The translations under genes and the position numbers were made by a program. 64,000 nucleotides of DNA from contig JBIOZG010000043.1 in assembly GCA_044870765.1 (NCBI GenBank), forward strand, positions 40,080 through 104,079, written 5' to 3'. This DNA is from Nitrososphaeraceae archaeon (GTDB lineage: Archaea; Thermoproteota; Nitrososphaeria; Nitrososphaerales; Nitrososphaeraceae). Below, one piece after another: positions 24,642-61,014 of the stretch. The notes under the pieces are model-generated. The model had not been told where the DNA came from and did not search any database. It saw only the letters and a program-made list of their open reading frames with translations. Position 1 is the stretch's first letter. Each line of letters begins with the position of its first letter.

Positions 24642-24738
24642 GGGCCCGTAGCTCAGCCAGGTAGAGTACCGGACTTTTAGCATTTCGGAAGAAAAGGAAG
24701 AAATCCGGCTGTCTCGGGTTCGAATCCCGACGGGCCCG
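24642..24738 (+). tRNA. tRNA-Lys(UUU) with a 23-nt intron at canonical 37/38 (24680-24702)
   Basis: GGGCCCGTAGCTCAGCCAGGTAGAG-TA-CCGGA-CTTTTA/A-TCCGG...GGTTCGAATCCCGACGGGCCCG. Confidence 0.95.
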
Positions 24739-25756: not shown

Positions 25757-25787
25757 CTATGTAAATATTGTTTGAATTCAAAACCGA

Positions 25788-27162: not shown

Positions 27163-27300
27163 TTTTCTTATTTTAATTCAGCGGACCAATATTAACTAAA
27201 TTTTCGTCTTAGTAGTAATGCAACTATCGAAGTTCCAATAAATGGAGCAGGCCATAAAGTCCCAGTGATAACGCTATAACATTGAATACGAGGTCAAACA

Positions 27301-27356
27301 AAAAGCTAAATACAAACCAGTAGAACCCGGGTACATGCAAGGTTTGAATCCCGAGG
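27301..27356 (+). repeat. att-like site A1
   Basis: aaaagctaaatac..agtagaacccgggtacatgcaaggtttgaatcccgag; 3' part matches the tRNA-Lys T-arm GGTTCGAATCCCGA. Confidence 0.85.
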
Positions 27357-27574: not shown

Positions 27575-27594
27575 CTTAAATCAATAATCCATTC

Positions 27595-31375: not shown

Positions 31376-31382
31376 AAATACA

Positions 31383-32153
31383 TCATTTAAACAACCTAGT
31401 AGCCAGATTAATCCCTGCGACAGCTACTATAATTCCTATGATAAAAATTAATTTTTCGTGACTCAATTTTAATGCCCCCAACCTGGAACCTAGAAATCCC
31501 CCAAGAAGGACTACAAAGGCCAATGGTAAAATCAGTACAAAATCAACTTCCTGTGTGATTGAATGGGCAACAAGTCCGCTAACCGAATTTGTGAGTATGA
31601 ATAAACTAGCTGAGGCCGCAACTGTCTTTGGATTTGCTAGACCGGTTAATATCAAGATTGGTGATAACCAGATGCCCCCACCAATTCCAACAAGGCCCGA
31701 AACAGTCCCTAAAATAGCACCTAATGGTAATGTGATTAATGAAAGCCTAGGTAGACTTAGGTTTAATTTTCTTATTTTCTCCCGCCTTATTTTTATCTGG
31801 TTACCACTTAATAGTAGCATGGCCGAAGCTGAAAAAAGAGCAATTACGAAGATTAGTATGAGAGTTTTTTCTGGTAGTATAGTAGAACCTCCAATAAAAG
31901 CAAATGGTACTGAAATAAGTAACGGAATAGATATACGAAGTGATAGGTGACCTGCCCTTAAATAATTGAAGAGCGCTATTGAAGCAACAACTATATTCAG
32001 AGCTAATGACACAGGAGGGATGGTGAATAGATTTACCCCAACAAGAACTAGTATGGCAATATAGCTGCTTCCTCCTGCAAATCCAACACTAGAATAAATA
32101 AAACTTATTGCAAAGAAAACTGGAACAAGTATTATCAGTAATTGCTCATTAAT
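31383..32153 (-). CDS. TauE/SafE (TSUP) sulfite exporter family permease
   Basis: YSSVGFAGGSSY (upstream of the called GTG 32012) and SGLVGIGGGIWLSPIL repeats; probable non-canonical start near 32153. Confidence 0.87.
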   Translation of the reverse strand: MNEQLLIILVPVFFAISFIYSSVGFAGGSSYIAILVLVGVNLFTIPPVSLALNIVVASIALFNYLRAGHLSLRISIPLLISVPFAFIGGSTILPEKTLILIFVIALFSASAMLLLSGNQIKIRREKIRKLNLSLPRLSLITLPLGAILGTVSGLVGIGGGIWLSPILILTGLANPKTVAASASLFILTNSVSGLVAHSITQEVDFVLILPLAFVVLLGGFLGSRLGALKLSHEKLIFIIGIIVAVAGINLATRLFK

Positions 32154-33081: not shown

Positions 33082-33088
33082 CTTTTCT

Positions 33089-33505
33089 CTACTCAAGTAA
33101 TACTCCATCAGCCCATTTCTGACTTTCTTTAGATATTTCCTTTTTCCAAATAGGTACCCGAGTTTTCACATTATTTAGAACATATTTGCATGCCTCAAAA
33201 GCTTCATGCCTATGCTCTGAAGAGACCCCAATTATAATACTGGTCTCACCGGCTTTTATATTACCGATCCTATGAATTGCAACTAATTTTTTTATTCCCC
33301 ATTTTGTTTGTGCTTCATTTTCAATTTCCCTCAATTTTTCTTGTGCCATCTCATTGTAAGTCTCATAATAGATTTCTGAAACGTTACCAAACCTTCCATG
33401 ATTACGGACGTTGCCTATGAAAATTGATAATGCACCTGCAGAATTGTCCTCTAGTTCAAACATTATCTCTTGCAAATTTAGACGGTTATTGGTAATACTA
33501 ATCAA
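33089..33505 (-). CDS. moaE: Molybdopterin synthase catalytic subunit
   Basis: GA..IFIG.VR, HRIG, S.HR.EAFEAC and K..VPIWKKE motifs. Confidence 0.95.
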   Translation of the reverse strand: MISITNNRLNLQEIMFELEDNSAGALSIFIGNVRNHGRFGNVSEIYYETYNEMAQEKLREIENEAQTKWGIKKLVAIHRIGNIKAGETSIIIGVSSEHRHEAFEACKYVLNNVKTRVPIWKKEISKESQKWADGVLLE

Positions 33506-33508
33506 GAT

Positions 33509-33796
33509 TCAACCCCCGCTGACTGGCGGCAAAAGCGCAATTTGATCCTTGGAAGAAATAATGGTATCTCCACTAGTAACCTTACAATTTACAGAAGTTA
33601 CAAATTTGTTACTAAACGATTTTAGCTGCGGATACTTCTTTAATATTTCATCATTCAAGTGGTTTACTGTAATGCCAGTAGGTACAGTTATTGTTATTTC
33701 TCTTTCACCCACCAATTCTCTCAAAATTGCAAATAATTTGACTTTTATTTTGTCGTTACCTAAATTATCCGATCTCAATTTGAGCTTATCCACCAA
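33509..33796 (-). CDS. moaD: Molybdopterin synthase sulfur carrier
   Basis: VKLFA.LRE.VG and C-terminal LLPPVSGG. Confidence 0.95.
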   Translation of the reverse strand: MVDKLKLRSDNLGNDKIKVKLFAILRELVGEREITITVPTGITVNHLNDEILKKYPQLKSFSNKFVTSVNCKVTSGDTIISSKDQIALLPPVSGG

Positions 33797-34796
33797 TTGT
33801 ATGCATAAGGTTAAGTTTTGGCTTAAGGCCGTTAATTCTTATCAGACTCGCTATCCCTTCCTCTTTCATAGTCATACAGTGAATTAAGCAATGACCAAGC
33901 TCCTCATCTGATGCTCCTTTACGCAGATAACTCTTGATATCGTAACCTGGGTTTTCAAATAGACAGGTAAGGAATCTTCCATCAGAAGTCAATCTTATCC
34001 TATCGCACTGGCTGCAGAAGGGCTCTGTTACAGAGGGAATAAATCCCACAGTCCCTATTCTATCTGAAAAAGAATAGAGTTTAGCAGGTGCTGACATCTC
34101 TCGTTCTGAGGCAGGAAAAACTTTTCCAATATTGGATTCTAGTTTTTCGATCATTTCCATTTTACTAACAACGAGATCATTCCTCCATATCCCTGACCCA
34201 TCTAGTGGCATAAACTCTATAAATCGGACAGTGATGCCTGTCCGTCTTGCAAAATTGGCAAATTCAACAACTTCATCATCATTCCAACCCCTGACGACAA
34301 CTGTATTTATCTTTACATCAAATCCAACATCTTTTGCCTTTTGGATAGATTTTACGACTTTGTCTAGCCCATTTACCCCCGTCATCATCTTAAATCTATC
34401 TTCTTTAAATGAATCTAGACTAATATTCACGCTGTCAAGGCCGCTGGATTTTAATGATTCTACTTTCTCTTGAAGTAGTAACCCATTGGTTGTTAGCCCG
34501 ATGCTCTTAATGTTACCTATCTTTGCAATTGATTTGATTAGGTTTTCTATTGAAGGTCTGACCAGTGGTTCACCTCCTGTTATTCTTATTTTTTCAACCC
34601 CTAAATTAGCAAAAATAGATGAAAGTCTAGTCATCTCATCAAAAGAGAGAACTTCAGTAGTGTCAAGCCACTTTGTATTGTCCTTTGGCATGCAATAACC
34701 GCATTGCATATTGCACCTGTCTGTGACAGAGATTCTAAGCTTTTTTGCAATTCTACCATAATTATCTATTAATTTGCCTTTCATGGATCCTATCAT
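33786..34796 (-). CDS. moaA: GTP 3',8-cyclase (radical SAM)
   Basis: LRISVTDRCNMQCGYC, TGGEPL, FCSQCDRIRLT..G...CL and C-terminal IGG. Confidence 0.96.
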   Translation of the reverse strand: MIGSMKGKLIDNYGRIAKKLRISVTDRCNMQCGYCMPKDNTKWLDTTEVLSFDEMTRLSSIFANLGVEKIRITGGEPLVRPSIENLIKSIAKIGNIKSIGLTTNGLLLQEKVESLKSSGLDSVNISLDSFKEDRFKMMTGVNGLDKVVKSIQKAKDVGFDVKINTVVVRGWNDDEVVEFANFARRTGITVRFIEFMPLDGSGIWRNDLVVSKMEMIEKLESNIGKVFPASEREMSAPAKLYSFSDRIGTVGFIPSVTEPFCSQCDRIRLTSDGRFLTCLFENPGYDIKSYLRKGASDEELGHCLIHCMTMKEEGIASLIRINGLKPKLNLMHTIGG

Positions 34797-34824
34797 TTGC
34801 TTGCATACCAGGTTATGATGGCCA

Positions 34825-35514
34825 TCAATTTTTCCTTGCCTGCTTTAACTGTTCGATGAAATGAAACTTCCAACCCTTTGGTAAATCTTTAACCTTGACG
34901 GCACGTTCCATTGTTTGAAGATCATCCTTATTTACAGCGTATAATCTGACAATATCCTTTATCGTAACATTATTTTCATCTTTTTTGACAAGCTTGATTT
35001 CATCACCTTGTTCCAGCTCTCCTTCCTTCATTACCTTGAAGTAGACACCCGTAAGACCACTTGCCAGAAATTTTTTAATCATATCCATTCTTCCAAATTT
35101 TACTCCGAGTTTATAACATGGCATCCTAGGCTGAGTTGCGACAACTTTCGCTGTTCCAACCTGGAATTGATCTCCAATGTTAACCATTTCTTCAAACATT
35201 CCTTGTGTAGTAAAATTTTCACCAAACATACCCCAAGGCAATGACATGCCAGGGAGTTCCTTATTCCAGTAACTATAATGTTCTGCTGCATACGCATAGA
35301 TGGCCTTGTCAGCACCGCCATGTACTGTTAAGTCGGCCTGCTTGTCTCCGTCGAGATTGAGTTTCCGTAATCTTACACGACCACTTACTGGTTCCTTAAA
35401 GATTCCAGTAGTTACAACTTCACTCTGGAATTTCACTTGACGTGGAAGACCGACGTTTAGCGATAATAGCTTCAAAACACATAATTTATCCAGGCATCTT
35501 AAATAAACCTTCAA
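34825..35514 (-). CDS. MOSC domain protein (YiiM-like)
   Basis: GD.QAD..VHGG.DKA, FGENFT and QPRMPCYKL motifs plus 3-alpha C-terminus. Confidence 0.92.
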   Translation of the reverse strand: MKVYLRCLDKLCVLKLLSLNVGLPRQVKFQSEVVTTGIFKEPVSGRVRLRKLNLDGDKQADLTVHGGADKAIYAYAAEHYSYWNKELPGMSLPWGMFGENFTTQGMFEEMVNIGDQFQVGTAKVVATQPRMPCYKLGVKFGRMDMIKKFLASGLTGVYFKVMKEGELEQGDEIKLVKKDENNVTIKDIVRLYAVNKDDLQTMERAVKVKDLPKGWKFHFIEQLKQARKN

Positions 35515-35579
35515 AGGCCAAATTGCGACCCAGACTTTGGAGTTCTCAGACTTTTGAATGAGAAAACTTAATACTTTAT

Positions 35580-35798
35580 GTGGCGGATTGTCTATCTGTT
35601 GAATTGTTAACCCTAATTTGCCGTGAAACAGGATTGGATTGCGATTACGTGATTGAGGGTGAAACTGAAGAGGAGATATTGAGTAAAGGGGCAGACCATG
35701 CTATCATGGTACATGGTTTGAAAGCTGAAGAAATATTTCTTGAATACACTCCATGCAATTTCTTATGTCAGACTTTGAGCAAGTTAAGCAATCAATAG
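35580..35798 (+). CDS. DUF1059-like small metal-binding protein
   Basis: CRETGLDCDY...GETEEE.....DHA...HG. Confidence 0.75.
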   Translation: MADCLSVELLTLICRETGLDCDYVIEGETEEEILSKGADHAIMVHGLKAEEIFLEYTPCNFLCQTLSKLSNQ

Positions 35799-35843
35799 AT
35801 CACATCGCAAAAAAAATTTACACTGAACTCATCTCTAAATTAT

Positions 35844-35912
35844 CCATAAAGAAAAAAGCTAAATACTATGTAGTAGAACCCTAGTACATGCAGGGTTCTA
35901 ATCCTGACGGTC
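35844..35912 (+). repeat. att-like site A2
   Basis: aaaagctaaatactatgtagtAGAACCCTagtacatgcAGGGTTCTaatcctgacgg; 8-bp inverted repeat plus tRNA-like tail. Confidence 0.88.
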
Positions 35913-36064
35913 AAATATGTAAGACGATAAAAAACTTTTTGATGAATTAAGAATTAGCAATAATAGTATGACTGGAAGGTTACTGAGGTTATATCTAAAG
36001 ACTAGCAGTGCGACAATTATTTAAAGTCTCTCAAATATGATTAGTTTCTATGTTGCTAATCTTC

Positions 36065-37237
36065 TCAATTAGAGAACAATGTTTTGGAAAAAGCAGCGAG
36101 CTTCTTTAAAGCATTAATTCTCTCCTGTCTTTGTATTTCTGCTCCTTCGATAGCGTCTAACAGATAACTAATCGACTTATCATACGTATTCCGAGCGACC
36201 GGATAAGGTACCCCATCTTTACCACCGTGAGCGAAATTAAATTTCACAGGATCTTGCCATGAAGCTTTCATTCCAAAAATTATTTCACCTATGAGAGATA
36301 AAGCTCTAACGGAAGCAGGACCGAAACCAGGTATGGAAATTAGTTGCTCATAGTTCCTAGGTTGAATATCATAAATTTTTCTAAATAAATTCCAATCTAA
36401 TTTACGAGGCATTTCATAGTGTTCTTCACCATGGAAATCTTCAAAAAGGCTACCAGAAGTATCGCTTAAATTGCTCCTCGGCATCCAATGATCTAGCGTA
36501 CTATTATTTTTCAACAAATGATCTTTTTTTAGTACGAGCTTGTTAACAGAAGATTTTAGGTTCTCGGTATTGCCCGTTGCCAACTCAAGGGAAATTTTTT
36601 GATTTTCTTTTGAATTAATTGAAGACATGTTCAATGTCCTTAAATTCTTGTAATCGCTTATTATGCCTGCATGAGGCTCGCAAATGAAGCTTTTCACAAA
36701 ATCCGACATCCAATGATACCTTCTTGCAGTCATGCTTTTGGGGTTCATGCCTTGTTGAACTACGGACCAATTGCCATTTTTATCAAAAAGAATCACATGG
36801 TGATATAATGAGTATCCGTCTTGTACTACCGCATTATCGACTTTTGCAGCCATCCTACTTGCGTACACTAAATTATCCATTTTGTCAGAAGATAGATTGT
36901 AATATTTTTCAGCCAATATTGGGATTTCATTTTTAGTTTGGTTAGATTTTTTGCCCTTGCCTCCTGCTATTGAAATACCGTGTTCTTCAATTGTAAGTGA
37001 TTGTTTTAAAACGCCTGTTACTACGGTTGTTACCCCTGAAGAATGCCAATCAAAACCCAGTACACAACCAAAAGCCTGAAACCACAATGGATCAGATAGT
37101 CTTCTTAAAAATTCATGGCCGCCGTATTCATTTACAATCACTTTTGCAATTGCGCCTGAAAGTTTGATCATCCTGTCGATAAGATAAGGAGGGACATGAC
37201 CGCCATGCAGTGGTAGCTTAATCGTTGCATGAGACAT
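36065..37237 (-). CDS. DUF763 domain protein
   Basis: LPLHGG..P, DP.WFQAFGCVLGFDWHSSGVTT and FAHGGKDGVPYPV. Confidence 0.9.
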   Translation of the reverse strand: MSHATIKLPLHGGHVPPYLIDRMIKLSGAIAKVIVNEYGGHEFLRRLSDPLWFQAFGCVLGFDWHSSGVTTVVTGVLKQSLTIEEHGISIAGGKGKKSNQTKNEIPILAEKYYNLSSDKMDNLVYASRMAAKVDNAVVQDGYSLYHHVILFDKNGNWSVVQQGMNPKSMTARRYHWMSDFVKSFICEPHAGIISDYKNLRTLNMSSINSKENQKISLELATGNTENLKSSVNKLVLKKDHLLKNNSTLDHWMPRSNLSDTSGSLFEDFHGEEHYEMPRKLDWNLFRKIYDIQPRNYEQLISIPGFGPASVRALSLIGEIIFGMKASWQDPVKFNFAHGGKDGVPYPVARNTYDKSISYLLDAIEGAEIQRQERINALKKLAAFSKTLFSN

Positions 37238-37513
37238 TAATTGTAATCATATAATTAAATCATAGATCACTTTATTAATTTACTCGAAAATTTAAGAAAA
37301 GGTATTGGCAAACATACAAAATAAAGTTGACATTAAAAAATTGATATTAAAAAATTGCTTTACCTTATGAAAGTGCAAGAAAGGAATTGTAATCGTGGAA
37401 ATAATCTTTTGATATCGTTTCTACAGGCTTTGGTTAATCATTTTATTTGTTCAATTACAAACTAAATCCATGTAATCTTTATAAAAAATATTGTCGTTTG
37501 TAAAGAAAGGAAA

Positions 37514-37789
37514 ATGGCTAGTAGCTTATTTAGGCTGGAATCAAACAAGTTCAGTACCGAGAATATTCAGGCTACTTTAGTATGTTCGAAATGTGACGAG
37601 GCATTCTCAAAGGAATTTCCAGTAGACCTAGAAGGACAGACAATTGAGTTTAAATGTCCTATATGTGGATCCCCCGGAGAGACTGACCTGCCCTATAAAA
37701 GTCCAGAAGAAAGAGAGAACCTTGACCTTGATTTTGATCAAGTAGAAGAGGAACAAGATAATAGTGAAGAATTCGAAGAAAGCTATTGA
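37514..37789 (+). CDS. Small zinc-ribbon protein with acidic tail
   Basis: CSKC...CPICG. Confidence 0.7.
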   Translation: MASSLFRLESNKFSTENIQATLVCSKCDEAFSKEFPVDLEGQTIEFKCPICGSPGETDLPYKSPEERENLDLDFDQVEEEQDNSEEFEESY

Positions 37790-37977
37790 GGACTTAATTC
37801 TACATTCTCCGAATTCACATAAAGGAAAATTCATCATAATATTTTTAGGATTTTAATACAACCTACAACAAGCGTATCAGCTCTTTCTAGTCCCTAGAAT
37901 CTAAGTTGTTACGATTGGAAACGGTATAATGGCCAATAACAAACAACCGCTAGAACATGAAAGGTATATAGATTTTA

Positions 37978-38910
37978 TTGGCACATAGGAAAATGGATTT
38001 CAAATTGGGATACTTTTATTCATTAATAGGTTTAGGATCTGGCCATATGTTTATCATTGTCATATCCACAGGATTACTAGCCCTGTCAATAACTTCAAAT
38101 AATTATTTAATTAATTCAACCTGGGCTCAAACACAGATTTTTAGTAGTGCAGAATCCAATTCTGATCCTATTAGGAGCGATGTTAGTTTGGATAACGGCA
38201 TATGTGATTTTAATTCCGAAAATCCTTTTTCGTCCAACGCTCTTCTTGAAAAATTGAGGGATGATTTCTGCGATGAAGATATCAACTCAATTGAAAACGA
38301 TGATGACGAAAACGATGATGAAATAAGAGATCGGATTAATGAAGCAGTAGATGACGAAGATGATCAAGGAAATGGAGAAAATGACAATTTATCAACACAA
38401 GACAGAATACAAAAGAGGTTGCAAGAACTAAAAGATAAATTAGAAAAGGTTTTGTCGGAAGAAGAAGAAGAGGATCAACCATTACCAGAAGAAGAACAGA
38501 AGCAAGTGGAAGAAGAAGATCAATTCGCTATTAAGGAACACAAAGCTGAAAACGATAATGACTGTAAAGGTGGAAATGTGCTTGAGGGTGCGTCAAATGA
38601 GGAAGATCTAAAAGTATTGTCGGAGTGTCAGGAAGCGGTAGGTGAAGTAGTTCACACGAAAAAAATGGACGATGGCGATTACAAATTTCTTTTAAACGTT
38701 GAGAATAAATACAAGTATCTTTTAAATGAAAAAAATGACGATAAAACCGACGGGTTCTTGGTGGTAGAAATCGTTCCACCAGATCAAGGTAAAAGCGGAA
38801 TAATTCTTCCAAAGGAAGGTGACCGGGTTCACATATGGGGAGCATGGGTTACAGACAAGCCAAAAGGATGGCATGAAATACATCCTACCTGGAAAGTAGT
38901 TAAACAGTAA
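37978..38910 (+). CDS. Secreted protein with acidic low-complexity linker and C-terminal OB-fold-like domain
   Basis: TM/signal segment, D/E-rich middle, DGDY...VVEIVP...GDRV..WGAWVTD...GWHEIHP. Confidence 0.72.
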   Translation: MAHRKMDFKLGYFYSLIGLGSGHMFIIVISTGLLALSITSNNYLINSTWAQTQIFSSAESNSDPIRSDVSLDNGICDFNSENPFSSNALLEKLRDDFCDEDINSIENDDDENDDEIRDRINEAVDDEDDQGNGENDNLSTQDRIQKRLQELKDKLEKVLSEEEEEDQPLPEEEQKQVEEEDQFAIKEHKAENDNDCKGGNVLEGASNEEDLKVLSECQEAVGEVVHTKKMDDGDYKFLLNVENKYKYLLNEKNDDKTDGFLVVEIVPPDQGKSGIILPKEGDRVHIWGAWVTDKPKGWHEIHPTWKVVKQ

Positions 38911-38983
38911 AATTTCATATTCTTTTCATTGAAAATTAAATTACGAATAAGATAGGAGCCAATTAGAAGGACATCTTGAGAAA

Positions 38984-39041
38984 GAAGAGCTAAATAGAAG
39001 TTAAGTAGAACCCTAGTATATGCAGGATTCTAATCCCGAGG
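38984..39041 (+). repeat. att-like site A3
   Basis: gagctaaatagaagttaagtagaaccctagtatatgcaggattctaatcccgagg. Confidence 0.85.
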
Positions 39042-39057
39042 AATCGCAGAATTGTGG

Positions 39058-39147
39058 GAAACTTTAAAGCTTAGAAGTTTTATGCATCTAATCAGAATCC
39101 CTTTTTAGAACCGATAGCGTCGCGAGTACCGACGTCCGAAGACTTGA
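39058..39147 (+). repeat. att-like site B1
   Basis: aaactttaaagctta...agaatcc..ttttagaaccgatagCGTCGcgagtacCGACGtccgaagacttga. Confidence 0.85.
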
Positions 39148-39310
39148 CTTAAAGAGAAGTCAAATGTGGCATTGAAAAAATATTTATTTCCTTAATTGGA
39201 AACAAAGATGGACTAATCTTCTTGGCAGCCGATATCGTCGGAATTCCATTAGCGAGAACATAGGCTTGTCTATTCCTAACTTTAAATATTATGAATCAAT
39301 ACATTTTCTT

Positions 39311-39820
39311 ATGACCATGAAAGTGAAAGTTGCAATTACTAGTACTGCAGTGGTAGTCTTAGTGGTATTAGCAACTGTAGTGATAACAGCATCAACATAT
39401 GGGTTGACTGAACTGGTGTTCGCACAAGCAGTTCCAAAATTTGTGATAAACCTAACAGGCAGTGAAGAAGTACCGCCGGTTCAAACACAGGCATCAGGTG
39501 TAATCGAAATCAGCCTAATGCCCGATTCGGTGGGATATAGTATAAACGCTACTAATATTGACGGCGTTACAGCAGGACATGTACATCTTGGCAAAAAAGG
39601 CGAAAACGGACCTGTAGTGGTTACATTGTTCAAATATGATTCTCCTATGAATAAAGTATCGGAAAACGGTACAATTACGGCTGATAAACTTGAAGGACCT
39701 ATGGCTGGCAAGCAATTATCTGACTATCTAGCTGCAGGTGCTAATGGTTCATTATATATCAATATTCATACAGAACGAAATCCCAATGGAGAAATTCGTG
39801 GACAAAGTGGAGCCAATTAG
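39311..39820 (+). CDS. CHRD domain protein, secreted
   Basis: L.G.EEVPPV.T.ASG, GHVHLG..G.NGPVV and YINIHT..NPNGEIRGQ. Confidence 0.92.
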   Translation: MTMKVKVAITSTAVVVLVVLATVVITASTYGLTELVFAQAVPKFVINLTGSEEVPPVQTQASGVIEISLMPDSVGYSINATNIDGVTAGHVHLGKKGENGPVVVTLFKYDSPMNKVSENGTITADKLEGPMAGKQLSDYLAAGANGSLYINIHTERNPNGEIRGQSGAN

Positions 39821-39945
39821 CCCAAAAATAAAAACGATATTGACTGCCGCGGATTTAGGGAATAATTCAAAACCTCGTGGATTATAACGGTAATAAATAC
39901 CAATTAATACCAACATATATATGCCCTTATGCCTAGTATAATAAC

Positions 39946-40476
39946 ATGGCATCAAATAAAGAAGTAAAAAATACAGAAAAAATCAATATTGCTCTTGACG
40001 AAACAAAATCAAATGTTAAAAAGACAGCAGATGAAGCAGTAAAGGAAATTCCACGGTTTACTAAAGCCGTTAATGAATATCAAGAAGAGACCATTCAAGC
40101 AACAAAAGATATAGCAGATAATTTTCTAGATTCACAAAAAGAGGTTATTCATTCAATGCAATCCTTATGGGTTCCGTACATTGAGAATGTGCAAAATTCA
40201 TATTTGTCATATTGGGTTTCTCCACAAAGAGTCACTGAAAATTATGCAAGAGCAGTAAGCAATATTACAGACAGTACAATAGTCGCAACCAGATTAGCAA
40301 ACAATTACATATTTGCATCTATGGATGCATGGAAAAATTCAATACAGCACGCAAGAGACAACGCAAAAGAATTTTCACGGCTGAATGCTAATGTCGCAAA
40401 TACATTCGAAAACGCTGCAAGAGACAATCTAAGAGACTTTTCAAGAGAAGTAGAAACACATTCAAGACGACAATAA
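39946..40476 (+). CDS. Alpha-helical hypothetical protein
   Basis: Amphipathic helical pattern, ALDETK...EIPR.T.AVN.YQE; TATA-like element upstream. Confidence 0.75.
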   Translation: MASNKEVKNTEKINIALDETKSNVKKTADEAVKEIPRFTKAVNEYQEETIQATKDIADNFLDSQKEVIHSMQSLWVPYIENVQNSYLSYWVSPQRVTENYARAVSNITDSTIVATRLANNYIFASMDAWKNSIQHARDNAKEFSRLNANVANTFENAARDNLRDFSREVETHSRRQ

Positions 40477-40602
40477 GCGCAACATTGTGATAGATTATTA
40501 AAAATTAATCTATCCACTCTTAATTTTTTATAATAATAAAACCCAATATTCATCATTTTTCACAAACGTATATTTTTAAAGATATTCATAATACATGTAT
40601 AA

Positions 40603-40761
40603 TTGCAACTTTACATTGGGTGTTCGGGCTGGAGTTATACTTCTTGGCAAGGTCCGTTCTATCCACCAAGTCTAGAAAATAGAGCCTGGTTGCCGATATC
40701 TTGGAAAAAAATCTGTTGCTTCAGCAAACTTATTTTTGAGAATCTTTACTGTACAATGTAA
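40603..40761 (+). pseudogene. Truncated DUF72-family gene (N-terminal ~31 codons only)
   Basis: MQLYIGCSGWSYTSWQGPFYPPSLENRAWLP is the DUF72 N-terminal signature; similarity ends at GCCGATAT (40692). Confidence 0.8.
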
Positions 40762-40800
40762 ATGGGCGAGTCAAAGCCTAATAATACAAAAAACAGGACT

Positions 40801-40971
40801 AAGGAAGTAATTTATTGAGTTTTAGAAAATATGAAAAATTCAGCCACTGATATTTGTTCTGTTATTGAGACTAGAATGAATGAAATCATGGATAAGATAA
40901 GAGAAGCCGATTCTATTTTTGAAGTCGATCCATTAGATAGCGAATTAGACAAACTTTCCTTTAAGATATGA
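40801..40971 (+). pseudogene. Relic of a small helical protein gene
   Basis: KEVIY*VLENMKNSATDICSVIETRMNEIMDKI...; in-frame TGA at 40816 and no clean start. Confidence 0.35.
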
Positions 40972-40996
40972 TCTGCAAACTTTTCTATGGATTTTA

Positions 40997-41194
40997 TTAA
41001 TCTTTCATCACTGAATGAGGATAGGGAAATATCCTTATCTTGTCTGAAACGCCAACAGGCAGCCTATCATCGTCTATCTTCCCTATATTTTTGAATGGGT
41101 CATCTGCGAATACCCTTGCTGCAGAAGCACCAATCACAGCGCCAATAATCAGAACTATTGAAAGGACAAGTAACATCTTTGAATCTAAGTTCAT
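40997..41194 (-). CDS. Small secreted/membrane peptide or gene fragment
   Basis: Signal-peptide-like N-terminus in a 65-aa ORF. Confidence 0.45.
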   Translation of the reverse strand: MNLDSKMLLVLSIVLIIGAVIGASAARVFADDPFKNIGKIDDDRLPVGVSDKIRIFPYPHSVMKD

Positions 41195-41820
41195 CTACTT
41201 CCTACAGAATGATTTGATTTATATGAACTCGGATGGATAGATTCTAAATATTATTCAGAATAAAGTTTCTGCATTATTTTCAGTATGCCTGTGCTCAACA
41301 ATATAGTAGAGACTACTTCAGATTATTTACTATAAACGATCAAGCAGCTACTAAAATTATTTTTGCACGGATGCCAACCTAAGTTGTAGTAAGTTTAATT
41401 TATCAACTCTTATTTCTGGAATTTCAACTTTGCCGATATACTCACCCGTAGTACACTTATAATATTCCAAAGTTAGAGGGTGACCACGTGGAGTTTTCAT
41501 GTATATATTATATACATAAGGTTATTTATAAATTATGTATTAATTTTAAATCGAAGCCATACGGATTAGACTTCTATCTTATTTTCATTTAAAACTAATT
41601 TAATACCTACGGCCTCGCTCGGAGTCATTTTTAAGGTTTGATGTTCTCTAGAAAAGTTATAATGTATTTGTAAAAGCGGATACTAGACGAGAGAAATGAA
41701 TTGACAGACGATTTACACTTGATAAGACGTGCAGAGGATAATTACAGGCTTTATAACATTCATACTTTAACATAAAACTAAAGTAATTGTCCCGATATTC
41801 TAAATTCAGGATTAATAAAA

Positions 41821-42039
41821 TTGGTAAAAAACAAAAAACAAATAAAAATAATACACGAGTCCGCTGCAAATTATACGTTTTCGAACACTGGTTTTACAAA
41901 TATTAAGAAAGAGGAAAATGCTGATACTGCAAATAAGACCACACCGAGTACAGAAAAGGAGATACCTAGGGCGCGGTCCATAGATTTGAGAAACTCAAAA
42001 ATTCGACAGAAAAATAGGATAGGTGCCGAACAACTATAA
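41821..42039 (+). CDS. Small hypothetical protein
   Basis: 72-aa hydrophilic ORF with no recognisable motif. Confidence 0.3.
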   Translation: MVKNKKQIKIIHESAANYTFSNTGFTNIKKEENADTANKTTPSTEKEIPRARSIDLRNSKIRQKNRIGAEQL

Positions 42040-42260
42040 ACAAGGTCATTATTCAGTGTACGAATAATAAAGATTTATGACTCACAGTGATGTGAGAGGG
42101 TTTTTTCTATTGGACTTTTATGACCATCTAAATTTCAAATATTTCATTATTTAGGTTAGCTCCAATACCGCTTGCTGCACCTTTCCAAACTACAAACCAT
42201 CTGAATGATAACATACTAGTACTCACTTTATTGGGAATATTCTGTTCTATTAATCATTGA

Positions 42261-42322
42261 GGAAAAGTAACTACCAACCAATAGAACCCTAACACATGCA
42301 CGGTTCTAATCCCGACGAGCTC
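42261..42322 (+). repeat. att-like site A4
   Basis: atagaaccctaacacatgcacGGTTCTAATCCCGACGAGCTC vs tRNA GGTTCGAATCCCGACGGGCCC (3 mismatches in 21). Confidence 0.88.
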
Positions 42323-42387
42323 ATAAAATCTGGATAATTGGATTATTAAAGGATAATTATAGTATCAGAGTCATTCTATTTGCATAT

Positions 42388-44493
42388 TCACACCATAGTA
42401 ACTTTATCATGATATTCTGAAATCTTATCATCTAACATTCCATAATCCTCCTCGCTTAATTTCCCCTTGTAATATAGCCCCGTTATGTTCCTTCTTATTT
42501 TACTTAAACGCTGCAATGATTCCTCTTTATTTTTATCCGACACTTCGTACGCAGCCAGAATCGTTTTGAGATACCTAGATAGATTGCTTCTACGTTTCCT
42601 AGCAATAAACCAGCCAAAAAATGCTGGTAAAATTGTTCCCAACATCACTGGAATTATTAAGTTAGTAGTCAAATACTCAGATGGAATTACTTCCTTGAAA
42701 TTAGCGACTAGTGTTCCATAATGAGTAACTGGCAATGTTATCTCAGGATTATTTTTTGATGGGGTAGCCAGATCACCAGACCAACTATCAAATACAATCG
42801 GAGGGAAAATACCTAAAAAGCTGTTGGGCCTGGCTTGACAATTAAGCCGAGTGTTAATGTCATTCTTGATGTAAGAATTTGCAATTTGATTTTCGTTGCA
42901 ATATATGTAACCGGAATCCGGAGGGTATATGTTAAAGCTTGTACCAACGATTATCCTGTTTGTAGTACCGTTGACCATAGTAACTGTATTTGAGCGAAAA
43001 TTGACTACGTAAATTGTGTTTGTATCCGGGTCGATAGTCAGTCCCTGAGGTCCTTTCCCTACAGTTATATTCGTTAATACTTTATCGGTTGAGCCGTTTA
43101 TTACCGAAACTGAATCGGAATCCGAGTTTGCAACGTATATCATGTTTGTATATAGATTGTTGCCCATGCTATAGGGGTCTGAACCTACACTTATGTTGTG
43201 TACCACCCTATGTGTTGAGCCATCTATTACCGAAACTGAATCGGAATCCGAGTTTGCAACGTATATCATGTTTGTATTCGGATTAACTGTTAATGCAGCA
43301 GGACTATCTCCCACGGTTATGTTGGCTTCAATCTTATTCGTGGTTCCGTCTATTACCGAAACTGAATCAGAATCTGTCTTAGCTACGTATACAATATTTC
43401 TAAATAAATCAACTGCCAAACCAATGCCTGCAATATCGTTGTTGGGCATTCCACCTAGAGTGATATTGGCCTTTACGAGATTTGTAAGTCCATCTATTAC
43501 AGAGACAGTATTAGAACGAAAATTGGCTACGTAAATTGTGTTTGTATCTGGATTTACAGCTACTTCTATGGGATTTGTGCCTACCTTGATTGTATCAACT
43601 ACTCTGTTTGTTGCACCATCAATTACGGAGACAGTATTAGAACGAAAATTGGCTACGTAAATTGTATTTTCAAACTGATTGACGGCTATGCCGTATGGAA
43701 GATTATCTACGGTAATGTTGGCGACTAATCTATCATTCGTGGTATCAATTGAGGAGATTGTGTTAGAACGAGAGTTGCTTACATATAGTATCTTTGTATT
43801 AGGGTTAATTGCTACTGCAACAGGTACGCCGCCAACCTTAATGCCTGCTATTCCCAAGATGTGTTGGCCAATCTGATCTACGTTACCTATTTCCTGAGGA
43901 ATCTGTGAATTACTCTCTAATGGTAAATTAATCTGAAGTGAGCCAATCATTTTTTCCACGGTAGGCAAATACTTGAAAAATTCTGCCATTTGTGCGTGAT
44001 AGACTATAAAGTATCCTATACCATTTTTTATTGTAATCCACTCCGTTCTTTCGATATTGTCCAGTCCATCTTGATAATCATATGTTATTTTGTACGCTAG
44101 ATTATTTGCTAATGTTGTTTGGACTAAGTCGATAAGCTTGAAATCCTGAAAATTTTGTCTATAGTAATTTATTTCCCTGCTGATTAATTCATGCGTCCGC
44201 ATATTTTCTGAACTTACTACAATTATATCAAGGTAGTCTCGTATCTTATCTGAGTAACTAATTGAGTCCGGAATGAATGTGATTCTACCATGACTATGTG
44301 TTACTTCCCAATCAGAAGGGTAGTACATTGTTACCCCATAAGTATCACTTTTATATAATATGAAATCATTTGTCTGTAAATCTGTGCTCCTCTCATCTGC
44401 TGTTGCTGATAGATGAGGATTACTCATAATAGTAACTATATTTAGGAACACTATTACTGATCCGAACGCCTTGAAGTATAGTGAAACAGTCAC
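42388..44493 (-). CDS. Surface protein: PsbP-like domain, YVTN/YncE beta-propeller and C-terminal TM
   Basis: YPSDW..MI.S domain; about 7 repeats of P..IAVNP.TN.IYVAN..S..VSVIDG.T. Confidence 0.88.
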   Translation of the reverse strand: MTVSLYFKAFGSVIVFLNIVTIMSNPHLSATADERSTDLQTNDFILYKSDTYGVTMYYPSDWEVTHSHGRITFIPDSISYSDKIRDYLDIIVVSSENMRTHELISREINYYRQNFQDFKLIDLVQTTLANNLAYKITYDYQDGLDNIERTEWITIKNGIGYFIVYHAQMAEFFKYLPTVEKMIGSLQINLPLESNSQIPQEIGNVDQIGQHILGIAGIKVGGVPVAVAINPNTKILYVSNSRSNTISSIDTTNDRLVANITVDNLPYGIAVNQFENTIYVANFRSNTVSVIDGATNRVVDTIKVGTNPIEVAVNPDTNTIYVANFRSNTVSVIDGLTNLVKANITLGGMPNNDIAGIGLAVDLFRNIVYVAKTDSDSVSVIDGTTNKIEANITVGDSPAALTVNPNTNMIYVANSDSDSVSVIDGSTHRVVHNISVGSDPYSMGNNLYTNMIYVANSDSDSVSVINGSTDKVLTNITVGKGPQGLTIDPDTNTIYVVNFRSNTVTMVNGTTNRIIVGTSFNIYPPDSGYIYCNENQIANSYIKNDINTRLNCQARPNSFLGIFPPIVFDSWSGDLATPSKNNPEITLPVTHYGTLVANFKEVIPSEYLTTNLIIPVMLGTILPAFFGWFIARKRRSNLSRYLKTILAAYEVSDKNKEESLQRLSKIRRNITGLYYKGKLSEEDYGMLDDKISEYHDKVTMV

Positions 44494-46040
44494 CCTATTT
44501 CTCCTCCGGTTGGCGCATCTTTGGGAAGGAAAGGTAGCAGGGAAGTTTCAGCTTTATTGTCGCCTATTTGAATCGAGTTTATCATTTTTTGTACGACTGG
44601 AAGATAGTAAGTATACTTGGGTGATTCTGCTGTATATCCAATAATGTAGGCTGAGTCATCTTTGATTGTAAGGATGACCATTTCTTGAAGGGTCCCAACT
44701 CTATCATCCGTATATATATAGACAAGAGAATTGGCGGGAATTCCACCAAGAACAGTGTCACTTGAATTAATAATTTGGAAGCTCGGCAAATTCGCCTTAG
44801 CCTCTCCTACGATTTCGTCCGTTAATGCGGATAAGGAATTCTTATACGGGACTTTAAGAACTCGCAAAGCCTCTTCAAATTTATCCGAACTACTTTCAGA
44901 TGGAGATTTGAAGGTAACATTATTAGCATTTTCCGTTATTTGCCAGTCGTGAGGATAATTTACACTTACCGACTTTTCGTCACTTTTATAAGACGTAAAA
45001 GGTTGGGGCGTTAATGGCGGCTTCTGTATACCTTGGCCGGTATCAGGGCCTGGAGTAGTGCTTGCGCCTGTATCAGGGCCTGGAGTAGTGCTTGCGCCTG
45101 TATCAGGGGTAGAAATTGATCCTATTATTGTTACCGATTCGACATCTAAAACTGGTTCAGCTATCAAACACCAAGCTTTGCCACTTGAACATATGTCCTC
45201 TTGATCCTCATAAGTAATGGTGCAGGTGAAGATTTGATGAATTTGGCCGCTAGGACAATTGGAGCCCAGTGACTCAGTGTAATGATGAGGACGCTTTGTG
45301 ATCACACTAAATTCACCCCCTCCAGAGAATTCAACTTTAGTACCAGGAGAGTCAGCACCGCTAAAGGAAGTAGGAGACGCTTTACCCTCGCTCACTTTAA
45401 TTGTTAACTTAAAATCTTGTGGTTGTTTAGAACCTCCATTGTCATTTCTTACTTGTACTATAAATGTTCCTGTTGACTTAAATTCTGCCTTGCAATCAGA
45501 ATCCTCATCGTCTATTTTACCATCGTCATCATCGTCTTCGCCGTTACCACAGATCTCTTTTTTGTCTCCTTGTTGTTCCTTGCATTGTGAATCCTCGTTG
45601 TCTATTTTACCATCGCCATCATCGTCTTCGCCGTTACCACATATCTCTTTTTTGTCTCCTTGTTGTTCCTTGCAGTGTGAATCCTCATCGTCTATTTTAC
45701 CATCGTCATCATCGTCCTCGCCGTTACCACAGATCTCTTCCATTTCAACAGATTGTTCTTCTTCTCCATCAGAACTTTCTTCTTCTCCATCAGAACTTTC
45801 TTCTTCTCCATCAGAACTTTCTTCTTCTTCATCAGAACTTTCTTCTTCTTCATCAGAACTTTCTTCTTCTACTCCGTCCTCTATATCGGAGCTCGAATTG
45901 GAATAAACCACAGGAAGGTTAGTAATAGTTAATCCAATAAGCAAAAATCCTAGTGCCGCAAGTATTAATAACTTATTTTTTTGCAGGGTCTTGTGAATAG
46001 CATTTTTCTCTTTCGATGCCCGGAATCTTACGATTTCCAA
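44490..46040 (-). CDS. Secreted protein with acidic/Ca-binding-like repeats and C-terminal PsbP-like domain
   Basis: EEESSDG repeats, 3x EICGNGEDDD.DGKID.EDS.C, Ig-like region and YPHDW...MINSIQI domain. Confidence 0.82.
   Translation of the reverse strand: MEIVRFRASKEKNAIHKTLQKNKLLILAALGFLLIGLTITNLPVVYSNSSSDIEDGVEEESSDEEEESSDEEEESSDGEEESSDGEEESSDGEEEQSVEMEEICGNGEDDDDDGKIDDEDSHCKEQQGDKKEICGNGEDDDGDGKIDNEDSQCKEQQGDKKEICGNGEDDDDDGKIDDEDSDCKAEFKSTGTFIVQVRNDNGGSKQPQDFKLTIKVSEGKASPTSFSGADSPGTKVEFSGGGEFSVITKRPHHYTESLGSNCPSGQIHQIFTCTITYEDQEDICSSGKAWCLIAEPVLDVESVTIIGSISTPDTGASTTPGPDTGASTTPGPDTGQGIQKPPLTPQPFTSYKSDEKSVSVNYPHDWQITENANNVTFKSPSESSSDKFEEALRVLKVPYKNSLSALTDEIVGEAKANLPSFQIINSSDTVLGGIPANSLVYIYTDDRVGTLQEMVILTIKDDSAYIIGYTAESPKYTYYLPVVQKMINSIQIGDNKAETSLLPFLPKDAPTGGEIG
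45040..45108. repeat. 30-bp coding tandem repeat (PDTGASTTPG)
   Basis: gtatcagggcctggagtagtgcttgcgcct x2.3. Confidence 0.9.
45499..45739. repeat. 90-bp coding tandem repeat (EICGNGEDDD.DGKID unit)
   Basis: Units start at 45499, 45589 and 45679. Confidence 0.9.
45756..45870. repeat. 21-bp coding tandem repeat (EEESSDG/E)
   Basis: ttcttcttct(c/t)catcagaact, about 5 copies. Confidence 0.9.
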
Positions 46041-52360: not shown

Positions 52361-52444
52361 AAAAACTTAAAGCTAAGTTGTTTCTAATATGTAGTAGAAT
52401 CCAGTAACAGGACTAATTTTGTTGCTCATATCGACGGGCCCGTA
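52361..52444 (+). repeat. att-like site C1, ending in an exact copy of the tRNA-Lys 3' end
   Basis: aaaaacttaaagcta..tatgtagtagaatcc..actaattttgttgc..tCGACGGGCCCGTA. Confidence 0.85.
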
Positions 52445-52485
52445 ATAAAATTAGTTCTCAAAAAGGATTCTAGGATAATAGAAAA

Positions 52486-52593
52486 ATGAGTAAAGAACTA
52501 ACAGAATTTGATTCAGATCCTCATTCCCTCTTCCTATTTGCATTAAATTCACCATCAACGAAGGAAAATATGCTTAAGAAAACAAATTCTTAG
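52486..52593 (+). pseudogene. Probable tyrosine integrase relic (N-terminal ~27 codons)
   Basis: MSKELTEFDSDPHSLFLFALNSPSTKE, with KY restored by one added A. From memory this resembles the DP.SLF..AL.SP.TKEKY start of Nitrososphaerales integrases. Lies 41 bp after site C1. Confidence 0.6.
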
Positions 52594-57084: not shown

Positions 57085-57861
57085 TTAGTATTTGCGCCTT
57101 CGCCTGACTACTACATATTCGCCGGGTCCTAGGTAGATTGTTCTCCTTCTTTTACCTCTTCTGCGAAATGATCTGGTGGCATTTTGATTTCTTATTCTAG
57201 AAGCTGCACTACGGAATGCTTGAGAAGCCAATTGATTTGCAGCAACCGGATCAGTGGTAGCAGCTTTATTCATGTTGTTTAAAATATTTTCATACATAGC
57301 TTCGCTAAGTTGGGTAAATTCTTTCCATCTGTCGAGGCTGTTTCCAGCAATTTCAGCTGTTTCTGAAATTCCCAAAAGCTTCAAAAGCGGACGAGCTGGG
57401 GCTAAAGCTGGATGTACTGTAATAATATTAAGTAAGGCGCCTCTGAGTGGCTCCCTTGCCATCATTCTTATCAATATCAGTGCGCTCTTTATTATTTTCA
57501 ATGGATTTCCTGGAATTGCTCCTCCGACCAATTTACTCAAGAGATTCTTAACTACTCCTCCAGTTAATTTGCCAAGAAAATATTGTTTCTCGACTTCATT
57601 GAGTATTCCATCAACTTCTGCATTTCTTGATTCGGGTGATTCAAATTGTTTTTCTTGTAATTCAAGAAAGCGCTGAGCTAGATAATTTGTAGTAGAATCA
57701 GATTCCATGGTCGCTTCTGCACCTTGTTCCATTTCCAGTTCAAATTCCTCATTTGTTTCTCCTAAAGGCTCTTCAAATTCCTCATTTGTTTCTCCTAAAG
57801 GCTCTTCAAATTCCTCCAAGCTTTCCAATTCACTTTCGTATTGTCCTTCTAAAGTAGACAT
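57085..57861 (-). CDS. Hypothetical protein with acidic repeat N-terminus and Arg-rich C-terminus
   Basis: EEFEEPLGETN repeats, amphipathic basic helices, RRRGKRRR...RRRRKY tail; 15 bp from the peptidase gene. Confidence 0.82.
   Translation of the reverse strand: MSTLEGQYESELESLEEFEEPLGETNEEFEEPLGETNEEFELEMEQGAEATMESDSTTNYLAQRFLELQEKQFESPESRNAEVDGILNEVEKQYFLGKLTGGVVKNLLSKLVGGAIPGNPLKIIKSALILIRMMAREPLRGALLNIITVHPALAPARPLLKLLGISETAEIAGNSLDRWKEFTQLSEAMYENILNNMNKAATTDPVAANQLASQAFRSAASRIRNQNATRSFRRRGKRRRTIYLGPGEYVVVRRRRKY
57739..57816. repeat. 33-bp coding tandem repeat
   Basis: ttcaaattcctcatttgtttctcctaaaggctc x2.4. Confidence 0.9.
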
Positions 57862-59106: not shown

Positions 59107-59932
59107 AGAATAACTTCCCCGCTTTTTACTGTATACAATGGCACTACATTGTCTATCGCGTTCTCATACATCACTCACATTATCTGAAAAATTTGTACTA
59201 AATATATTTCGGCGCCGAAAAAATTACTAGCTTAGGCGCCATCAACAAATTACTGGGAATGTACATAAAAACTATTACATCAATCATCTTCATCCTGGAA
59301 TCAACTATACAAACTGCCACACCAATGTATTACATGTTACTTATTAAAGAACAGAGCCGATCAGACAATAAACGATCAAGCAATATGTAATATCAAATGT
59401 AAAATGTCAATTAAAATGTACTTTTGAAACACATTATAATTTTAAATTATATTTTTATATTAATTGTTTTGTATTTTTGACAACTTTTAAATTGGAAAAA
59501 TAATTCATATATGAAAATTCTTGACTCTAGAAATCACATATGACAAAAAGAATCAGATATTATTACTGATAGGTAACACATTACCTTATTCAAGTTAGAT
59601 TTTCGGAGTCTATCAGGTGTTATTAGAGTAGATATCTAAATGGGTTAAGAACAGGATCAAAAAATGGTTTTCTGATGATCATTATAAGATACATGATAAG
59701 ATACTCGCTTAAACCCGACAATATGATACGAATTGTATATAATAAAAAGGTAGTTGCTGATGTTACCGTTACCCATATTGTGGATGTTTAATTACTTGAA
59801 GATGCTATTCATCATAATCTTATATCACAGTTTCTTTTGGTAATTGTTTACCACTCATTTTGCATCCAGAAATGCGTGGGAATTTAAGGTATTTTAAATC
59901 AAATTTGATAGATAGAAATGGGAGTTTTGAAG

Positions 59933-60012
59933 AAAAGTTTAAAGCTTACTAATCCTATTTAATACCAAGAATCCAATTTTAGAACCGATAGCGTCGTGGG
60001 TACCGACGAGCC
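59933..60012 (+). repeat. att-like site B2
   Basis: aaaagtttaaagctta...agaatccaattttagaaccgatagCGTCGtgggtacCGACGagcc. Confidence 0.88.
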
Positions 60013-60660: not shown

Positions 60661-60730
60661 CCATAAGAAAAAGCTAAATACGAAGTTAATAGAATCCATG
60701 CAAGGTTCGAATCCCAATCCCAATGAGCTC
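60661..60730 (+). repeat. att-like site A5
   Basis: ccataagaaaaagctaaatacgaagttaatagaatccatgcaaGGTTCGAATCCC-aatccc-aatgagctc. Confidence 0.85.
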
Positions 60731-60739
60731 TAGAGATTA

Positions 60740-60816
60740 GAAAACTTTAAAGCTTATTAATCCGTTTTAGAAGAAGGATCCTAAATTAGAATCGATAGCG
60801 TCGTGGGTACCGACGG
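60740..60816 (+). repeat. att-like site B3
   Basis: aaaactttaaagctta...aggatcc...ttagaatcgatagCGTCGtgggtacCGACGg. Confidence 0.85.
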
Positions 60817-60830
60817 TTAAGACCTCTGAA

Positions 60831-60920
60831 GAAAAACTATAATTAAATAGTTTAGTATTATGTATTAGAATCCTGCATTTGAACTAATTTTATTGCGGAA
60901 ACCGACGTCCGAACACTTGA
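60831..60920 (+). repeat. att-like site C2
   Basis: aaaaactata..tatgtattagaatcc..actaattttattgc..aCCGACGtccgaacacttga. Confidence 0.8.
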
Positions 60921-61014
60921 TGACCTTATTTTGGCCGAATGAACGTTATAGAAAATCTAAACTTACTCTGGGATTTCAGGTTCAACTAGTTTTGTTGATT
61001 TAGTAACATACTTT

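Follow-up and report, generated by a model that had tools for sequence, protein, structure and literature searches.

In bacteria, serial site-specific insertion at a single RNA gene, or accretion, leaves copies of the 3′ end of that gene at the internal borders, and integrase-less, decayed elements between the attachment (att) sites. In integrons the site attC is an imperfect palindrome with R″/L″-L′/R′ boxes, of which R′ reads GTTRRRY. Nanoarchaeum and Caldivirga have split tRNA genes, in which a tRNA-3′-like piece, starting close to the position of the intron, has a promoter immediately ahead of it. Published accounts cover bacterial accretion, integrase-less cis-mobilizable elements (CIMEs) and the tandem ssrA-linked islands of Dehalococcoides (PMC5704250; PMC3146451), and integron cassette arrays have been reported in Archaea (bioRxiv 10.1101/2022.02.06.479319). 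The integrated elements of Thaumarchaeota, according to a published survey, have short att sites (median 17 bp, down to 8 bp); 39 of 68 are in tRNA genes, and re-use of one site to form arrays is mentioned (Krupovic et al., 2019; PMC6563490). Here we describe an array of short sites of three families, A, B and C, in 64,000 nucleotides of DNA from a Nitrososphaeraceae archaeon, hereafter the window (G000:C43:40080-104079; G numbers denote genomes, C numbers contigs and L numbers loci). The source genome is 2.0 Mb in length with 36.7% G+C, is divided into 59 contigs, and is 96.65% complete.

Each site has a conserved left arm, a short core, CCGACG or a variant of it, and a variable right flank. 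The sites are anchored on a tRNA gene; the core is where their arms and flanks are reassorted, and in relatives integrase genes adjoin it. The A, B and C sites are probably hybrid att junctions that arose as a tyrosine integrase inserted DNA serially behind tRNA-Lys(UUU) and into secondary core copies.

The original prediction placed A5, B3 and C2 head-to-tail, and A3 and B1 in the same order elsewhere in the window. Both stacks are present, as follows.

60667..60735, + strand: A5, a degenerate stack-type A arm with an internal deletion and a 6-nt duplication, CCGACG missing; its sequence is AATCCCAATCCCAATG
60737..60815, + strand: B3, a B-type arm, with CCGACG at 60810-60815
60829..60907, + strand: C2, a C-type arm, with CCGACG at 60902-60907
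60908..61000, + strand: R4, a right module (TCCGAACACTTGATGACC...)
38985..39041, + strand: A3, a stack-type A arm with core CCCGAGG and with B1 directly behind it
39056..39134, + strand: B1, a B-type arm (GGGAAACTTTAAAGCTTA ... CGTCGCGAGTACCGACG)
39135..39190, + strand: R3, a right module (TCCGAAGACTTGAC...), which in relatives is also found behind A and B arms

The A5-B3-C2 stack spans 60667-60907, with gaps of about 1 nt between A5 and B3 and about 13 nt between B3 and C2, and the A3-B1 stack spans 38985-39134. The flank TCCGAA[G/C]ACTTGA, said to be common to B1 and C2, is indeed found behind both, as TCCGAAGACTTGA at 39135-39147 and as TCCGAACACTTGA at 60908-60920. It has two matches in the window compared to 0.13 expected, a number reached in none of 100 shuffles, and when joined to CCGACG it occurs six times genome-wide, with no occurrence of the reversed control. 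CCGACG itself was counted 15 times in the window, where 5.1 were expected (0 of 100 shuffles reached 15). R4 is 92% identical over 97 nt to a stretch of another contig of the same genome, C10:9438-9534.

A-B-C and A-B stacks recur in other genomes with their junction sequence conserved. Stack-type A copies have CGATG or CGAGG in place of CGACG. Six of 11 C units start directly behind another core with [A/C]A[C/T]TCGAATTTGC, which gives core-to-core units of about 105 nt. Most likely, the A-B(-C) stacks represent either composite arms or cargo-free core-to-core units of about 100 nt. Since the sequence of the A-B junction is conserved between species, a composite arm is favoured over empty cassettes.

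The remaining units of the window stand alone.

27300..27356, + strand: A1, an A-type left arm with the core variant CCCGAGG
35853..35909, + strand: A2, an A-type arm with core CCTGACG
42261..42317, + strand: A4, an A-type arm with core CCCGACG and flank AGCTCATAAAA
52360..52436, + strand: C1, a C-type arm ending ...ATCGACG
52437..52593, + strand: R1, a right module (GGCCCGTAATAAAATTAG...GGATTCTAGG) with a remnant of an integrase N-terminus
59929..60008, + strand: B2, a B-type arm with flank AGCCTGTTTTT

A1 is followed by a right module of about 88 nt, which it has in common with a B site on contig C52. All ten units (A1-A5, B1-B3, C1 and C2) are on the + strand. The source genome holds 19 B, 14 A and 3 C copies (nhmmer, E<1e-3). 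The flanks of three solitary sites had been called tRNA-like. The GGCCCGTA behind C1 is identical to the 3′ end of tRNA-Lys and is the one flank that is demonstrably tRNA-derived; AGCC behind B2 and AGCTC behind A4 are present, but their likeness to tRNA could not be shown.

The central claim of the original prediction was that left arms and right flanks are reassorted at CCGACG, which it proposed to examine in a table of arms against flanks from related genomes. This table was made for 128 distinct sites with an anchorable core from the source genome and its relatives. The right flanks formed 14 clusters with at least two members, and 8 of the 14 mixed left-arm families. Of the 20 cross-family pairs with a common flank, 13 had 6 identical nt directly left of the junction, 5 had 5 nt and 2 had 3 nt. 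Since identity stops 3–6 nt left of the junction in all 20, linkage breaks at the core, as had been proposed. The R1 flank is found behind both C and B arms, a flank beginning TCTGTGAATC and another beginning CATTAGAATG are each found behind A and B arms, and in G016 the flank of C2, R4, is found behind an A arm. Collinearity of the window with G010 extends over a whole 8.3-kb block to the ...AATCCTGACG of A2; from the next base the two are unrelated. The accompanying inference of site-specific crossover is supported by this break, by the anchoring on tRNA-Lys and by the integrases that abut the core in relatives. The crossover can probably be placed to the core region, in which the exact point of strand exchange is not fixable, the A arms sharing 17–22 nt with the tRNA.

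The same pairs bear on a reading in which the arms are dispersed repeats, similar to repetitive extragenic palindromes (REP) or miniature inverted-repeat transposable elements (MITEs), shuffled by homologous recombination or by an HUH/IS200-type transposase without an integrase. The units are short (60–100 nt), modular and intergenic, many of them between convergent genes; A has a subterminal inverted repeat 10 nt ahead of the end of conservation; and some boundaries are off the core. This reading is very improbable, given that all 20 pairs break at the core, that the sites are anchored on a tRNA 3′ end and that integrases abut the core. It also lacks an enzyme: IS200/605, TnpB and IS110 were considered as candidates, and no Y1 transposase, TnpB or IS110 was found in the 96.65%-complete source genome, with 0 matches to PF01797 and PF07282.

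The gene on which the array is anchored lies upstream of all ten units of the window.

24642..24738, + strand: tRNA-Lys(UUU) gene with an intron (ARAGORN; Rfam 58.1 bits; anticodon assigned by eye)

Its 3′ end, GGTTCGAATCCCGACGGGCCCG, reads ...GGGTTCGAATCCCGA|CGGGCCCG, so that CCGACG corresponds to the junction of the T-stem and the acceptor stem. Among 35 tRNA hits in the genome, the tRNA-Lys of the window is the only one that ends in CCCGACGGGCCCG. When 20 kb of the window (24400-44399) was compared to 30 genomes of the genus, homology stopped at 24738-24746. Downstream of tRNA-Lys there are mosaic blocks, the order and orientation of which differ among genomes. At 12 of 12 tRNA-Lys loci from other published genomes the DNA behind GGGCCCG is unlike that of the window; three of these loci (G004, G054 and G001) resemble one another. 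Relatives thus differ in the occupant of the site, with the break at the core. Sites and tRNA-Lys have the same orientation in all three genomes in which both are on one contig (the source genome, G010 and G016). These sequences point to the tRNA-Lys 3′ end as the primary attachment site.

Copies of this 3′ end are found at far borders, as in other att junctions that target tRNA genes. C1 carries CGACGGGCCCGTA, 13 nt of the tRNA-Lys end. On contig C24 of the source genome (1573-1542, minus strand) an A-like arm is followed by GGTTCGAATCCCGACGG-CCCG, which matches 21 of 22 nt of the tRNA-Lys end. The DNA behind this junction is 69% identical over 611 nt to the DNA directly behind tRNA-Lys in G051, and G051 and the window also share the gene upstream of tRNA-Lys. 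The A-like arm and tRNA-end copy on C24 are the predicted far border of the island. In G055 a 3.2-kb insert lies between CCCGACGGGCCC repeats. There is an overlap of 110 nt between the end of contig C43 and C10, and one of 127 nt between C10 and C52, with the sites on the + strand of all three; overlaps of this size, that of the assembly graph, can be ambiguous. The island is thus no shorter than 39 kb and probably reaches 73 kb or more.

Two further observations concern tRNA sequences. The length of the tRNA-Lys intron varies by species, and the window and G016 have about 9 nt extra (AAAGGAAGA) compared to most relatives (L074-L090). A tRNA-like sequence on the minus strand at 24399-24506 is divergent from tRNA-Lys; with introns allowed, ARAGORN reports it as tRNA-Arg(CCG), and its Rfam score is 28.6 bits against a cut-off of 29.

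The body of the A arm and tRNA-Lys have 17 nt in common, GGGTTCGAATCCCGACG. Could the arms be 3′ halves of split tRNAs with their own promoters, as in Nanoarchaeum? The A arm has a promoter-like box, a T-arm-like sequence and, in some copies, an acceptor-like GGCCCG flank, and AGAA|YCC resembles the border of the tRNA-Lys intron and 3′ exon. Most flanks are not acceptor-like, however, the T stem is not maintained, and no site scores as a tRNA. A search for the other half found no 5′-half gene, GGGCCCGTAG being present only in tRNA-Lys and in one place that is not a tRNA. We find this explanation hardly credible.

Conservation profiles of 39 A, 64 B and 8 C copies, from the source genome and relatives, show the same order of parts: a box, a spacer, a conserved body and then a sharp loss of conservation. 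With the sequence AAAAAGCTAAATA in the A family, GAAAACTTTAAAGCTTA in the B family and GGAAAACTTTAATGC in the C family, the box resembles an archaeal B recognition element (BRE)/TATA element. By inspection, the arm boxes also resemble boxes found 25–37 nt upstream of the tRNA genes of the same genome. The spacer in B and C is weakly conserved. The body is strongly conserved and extends for about 45 nt from (T)AGAAYCC to CCGACG; it begins about 31 nt from the box in B and C, and about 8 nt from it in A. The form of the box and its spacing suggest transcription from the body across the core, and the box could drive transcription across the junction. A role as promoter of a cassette gene on the opposite strand was rejected, since at A2 such a gene is about 340 nt away and gene orientation is mixed.

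The first 8 nt of R1 are those of the tRNA-Lys 3′ end. R1 is also an inverted repeat of the C and B arms, in that GGATTCTA and AAAATTAG are inverse to the TAGAATCC and (C/T)TAATTTT of the arms, and C1 together with R1 folds at −26.4 kcal/mol (z −4.85). R1 was considered as a conserved chromosomal flank and ruled out, the common stretch being only 68–96 nt. As R1 is inverse to the arm and an integrase lies behind it, a complete site looks like an arm, the core, an inverted arm and an integrase gene. On an excised circle, with the integrase gene behind the core and R1, the box would be directed towards this gene.

This anatomy raises the question of whether the arms are genes for small RNAs, with a BRE/TATA promoter, a start at (U)AGAAYCC, a 5′ domain of about 45 nt and a variable 3′ domain. 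Recombination would then be secondary, with integrases targeting these genes as they do tRNA genes. The box GAAAACTTTAAAGCTTA is like those of the genome's own tRNA genes and is about 31 nt ahead of the body in B and C, the spacer is weakly and the body strongly conserved, and C1+R1 forms a stable hairpin (z −4.85). Other combinations of arm and flank, however, fold no better than shuffles. There was no match to an Rfam family. RNAalifold gave a hairpin of only 6 pairs with a covariation term of +0.3; the changes are one-sided, and compensatory change is almost nil. The closing pair is broken in 12 of 64 B copies, and one pair in A is formed in 10 of 39. No terminator signal was seen, T5 runs downstream being as frequent as A5 runs (34 of 139 each), and in A the box is only about 8 nt ahead of the body. 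We consider small-RNA genes improbable. A search of the open-access literature found no published account of small RNAs or transcription start sites in Nitrososphaera.

Integrase genes are found next to the core in relatives. In G021 a 424-amino-acid (aa) integrase gene starts 10 nt behind tRNA-Lys, and in G051 a 391-aa integrase gene starts 47 nt behind it. These proteins are 31–37% identical to two intact tyrosine-recombinase paralogues of the source genome. The G051 protein scores 21.9 bits with PF00589, which is under the cut-off of 27.1; the scores of the two paralogues are 47.5 and 39.2 bits. G008 has an integrase pseudogene 60 nt behind a series of B arm, core and R1. The source genome has only a pseudogene and a remnant in such positions. 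The pseudogene is at C24:912-1463 (E 1e-45, 1 internal stop), in the DNA behind the A-like arm and the tRNA-end copy. The remnant, 35 codons of the N-terminus of the same integrase, is at 52486-52590 of the window, behind C1 and R1 (E 3e-4, and 45% identity over 31 aa at E 4e-5, in single small comparisons).

The family is matched in 35 of 40 genomes of the genus, two unpublished ones counted, and many of the matches are fragments. Genus-wide tallies here take in the unpublished genomes G020 and/or G049; claims at the level of sequence rest on neither. In G012, G041, G018 and G042 the start of an integrase gene of the same family is no more than about 90 nt from a tRNA 3′ end (tRNA-Arg, -Ile, -Val and -Ser). 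On G010:C8 a member lies beside tRNA-Leu on the opposite strand, at its 5′ side. It may be this family that joined the arms to their flanks. A serine recombinase was rejected for that role: the single resolvase of the source genome, at C5:134932-135522, is unlinked to any site. Directly behind tRNA-Lys in the window, on the minus strand at 24754-25260, an open reading frame (ORF) matches HTH_23 (27.5 bits) and, weakly, the resolvase-type HTH_7, with no other domain. It could be a regulator or directionality factor of an inserted element. G021:C177 holds a homologue.

The layout of the array was examined in 150 sites with scores of at least 25, from the source genome and non-duplicate loci, after removal of five chance bacterial and six overlapping loci. 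Adjacent sites were co-oriented in 90 of 90 pairs. The 17 gaps of less than 150 nt are stacks, with the orders A>B (9), B>C (3), A>C (2), C>B (1), B>B (1) and B>A (1). Among the 73 remaining gaps the median is 1729 nt and the quartiles are 1046 and 3336 nt. The orientation of genes around the sites is mixed (78 convergent versus 42 co-directional), and many sites are intergenic between convergent genes.

These figures are what might be expected of an active integron-like platform, in which integrase-less cassettes of 1–3 kb, each with an arm-core-flank site, are moved in trans and tRNA-Lys serves as an attI. The spacing is cassette-sized, orientation is uniform, and the cargo consists of ordinary accessory genes without integrases. 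The same segments are found in different order, behind different arms, across genomes. Intact integrases of the family are present elsewhere in the source genome, and the core-to-core C units of about 105 nt that start right behind another core would also fit. The anatomy of attC is absent, however: there is no R″/R′ GTTRRRY box in the A, B or C consensus, the whole site forms no hairpin, and only C or B with R1 gives a long hairpin, which has the core at its tip rather than at its base. In the window the platform has no adjoining integrase, the borders of blocks are often imprecise, no circular form was seen, and the mixed orientation of genes also weighs against it. We regard such a platform as unlikely.

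A variant of this idea gives the box a role. Here a capture platform anchored on tRNA-Lys would receive small integrase-less cassettes with a bipartite arm-core-flank site, moved in trans, and the box, which faces the core, would be a junction promoter reading into an integrase gene only in the circular form or when abutting an integrase-bearing neighbour. If true, integrase expression would be coupled to the excised state. We think this variant rather unlikely.

Serial insertion by tyrosine integrases remains the explanation that we favour, and would proceed as follows. Crossover would take place at the T-stem/acceptor junction, CCGACG|GGCCCG. The conserved left arms, of A, B, C and at least one further family, D, would be the element-borne arm of attP, the A arm having presumably retained 17 nt of the T arm of tRNA-Lys. 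The variable right flank would be either the other arm of a neighbouring, older insertion, as with R1, the putative integrase-proximal arm, or the original DNA downstream of the tRNA. Each insertion, whether it hit the tRNA or a secondary core copy, would displace older segments outward. The outcome would be co-oriented arm-core-flank junctions with arms and flanks reassorted at the core. With most integrase genes decayed, the island would now resemble an array of integrase-less 1–3 kb cassettes. This account of accretion fits the short att sites and tRNA targets described for thaumarchaeal elements (PMC6563490).

Several observations weigh against this explanation. No intact integrase is present in the window or beside its tRNA-Lys, and PF00589 is unmatched on contig C43. 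The two intact paralogues of the source genome, on C11 and C59, are without a neighbouring A, B or C site, and a search of 141 site flanks of up to 700 nt found no integrase-like stretch at E<=0.01. GGCCCG is missing from the start of most right flanks, which excludes insertion into the tRNA itself as the origin of these junctions. Some module boundaries are off the core: the switch between G014 and the window falls within the TATA-like box, and for L017 and L030 it comes 27 nt behind the core. Right modules of 60–100 nt reassort separately from cargo. The gaps are far smaller than typical integrase-bearing elements, the segments being of integron size. A box, a weak spacer and a strong body are the pattern expected of an RNA gene. 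Neither an excision product nor activity was seen. Flank starts, separate modules, off-core boundaries, integrase-free flanks and integron-sized segments are thus left unexplained, which leaves room for an active, trans-mobilised cassette system.

With respect to the switch in G014, the place taken by A2 in the window and in G010 (window 35790-35852) is occupied by a B arm on contig C89 of that genome. The two versions diverge inside a common AAAAAAAATTTA box, so arms are exchangeable at their promoter-like end as well.

The B model matched 21 of 24 genomes of the same genus (G020 included) and 0 of 16 from other families of the order. The arm families have expanded in one subclade. Members with large genomes (3.2–3.7 Mb: G001, G006, G018 and G051) have 0–2 B sites, none of them within 12–19 kb of tRNA-Lys; as many as 20 are present in members of about 2 Mb. 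A search for the exact A and B patterns in viral contigs gave no matches. Locus L048 (JACMIO010000101.1), labelled ‘bacterium’, has a full B unit (nhmmer 61.7 bits) and is probably a mis-binned Nitrososphaeraceae contig. The five true bacterial matches fit a 21-nt pattern only. Arm family D (GGATCCGAATTGTTAACAATRCGATTCNCGACG) has the same core end and is found on G019:C44 (L062, about 900-960) and on the minus strand of C49 in the source genome (about 9470-9524). At C10:12375 there is another core and flank without a known arm.

The island also holds recognizable genes and repeats. Between 27595 and 34796 of the window the translations, read by eye, show a sulfite-oxidase-like protein with MoeA, MoaB/MoaC, MoaE, MoaD and MoaA. 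This molybdenum-cofactor block is kept at 82–92% in many relatives. In-frame tandem repeats are present at 42959-43814, with 126-nt units, in a minus-strand ORF (42388-44493), and at 45483-45882, with acidic units of 90 nt and 21 nt, in a second minus-strand ORF (44490-46040). There is a perfect 33-nt duplication at 57739-57804.

For one genus of soil ammonia-oxidising Nitrososphaeraceae these findings offer a mechanism and a sequence signature for the collection of accessory genes, with one tRNA-Lys hot spot holding 39 kb or more of mosaic DNA, and probably 73 kb or more. Since the junctions are short and co-oriented, genomes break into small contigs here. Annotators could use the junctions as a marker of island borders. 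No description of such arm families, or of such an array, in Nitrososphaeraceae was found in the open-access literature, supplements lying outside the search; Table S2 of PMC6563490 could list related att sites.

How does the island compare with the described systems? Like thaumarchaeal integrated elements, it combines a tyrosine integrase at the 3′-distal part of a tRNA gene, a very short att site and re-use of that site. It differs in having dozens of junctions per genome rather than one or two, at least three arm families with a promoter-like box, and segments with a median of 1.7 kb that are mostly without an integrase; the genus is not among the genomes named for that survey in its available text (PMC6563490). 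Serial insertion at an RNA gene, copies of its 3′ end, and integrase-less remnants between att sites are also features of bacterial accretion and CIMEs. Here, unlike in those systems, the host is an archaeon, the units are far greater in number and much shorter, the B and C arms have a core of only 6–12 nt, and there are several arm families with a fixed stacking order. In common with split tRNA genes, a promoter-like box stands directly before a tRNA-3′-like piece, but there are no 5′ halves, no tRNA fold is kept, and the acceptor-side flanks are variable. The resemblance to integrons lies in co-oriented sites with kilobase spacing, integrase-less cargo and flanks reassorted at a short conserved core. 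In contrast to integrons, there is no attC palindrome, no GTTRRRY and no IntI gene next to the platform; a tRNA 3′ end serves as the primary site, and the genes are of mixed orientation. Should the cassettes have remained mobile, the island would be a tRNA-anchored archaeal counterpart of integrons. The accretion of integrative elements anchored on a tRNA gene is known; what is unusual is the number and smallness of the units and the conserved arms of several families.

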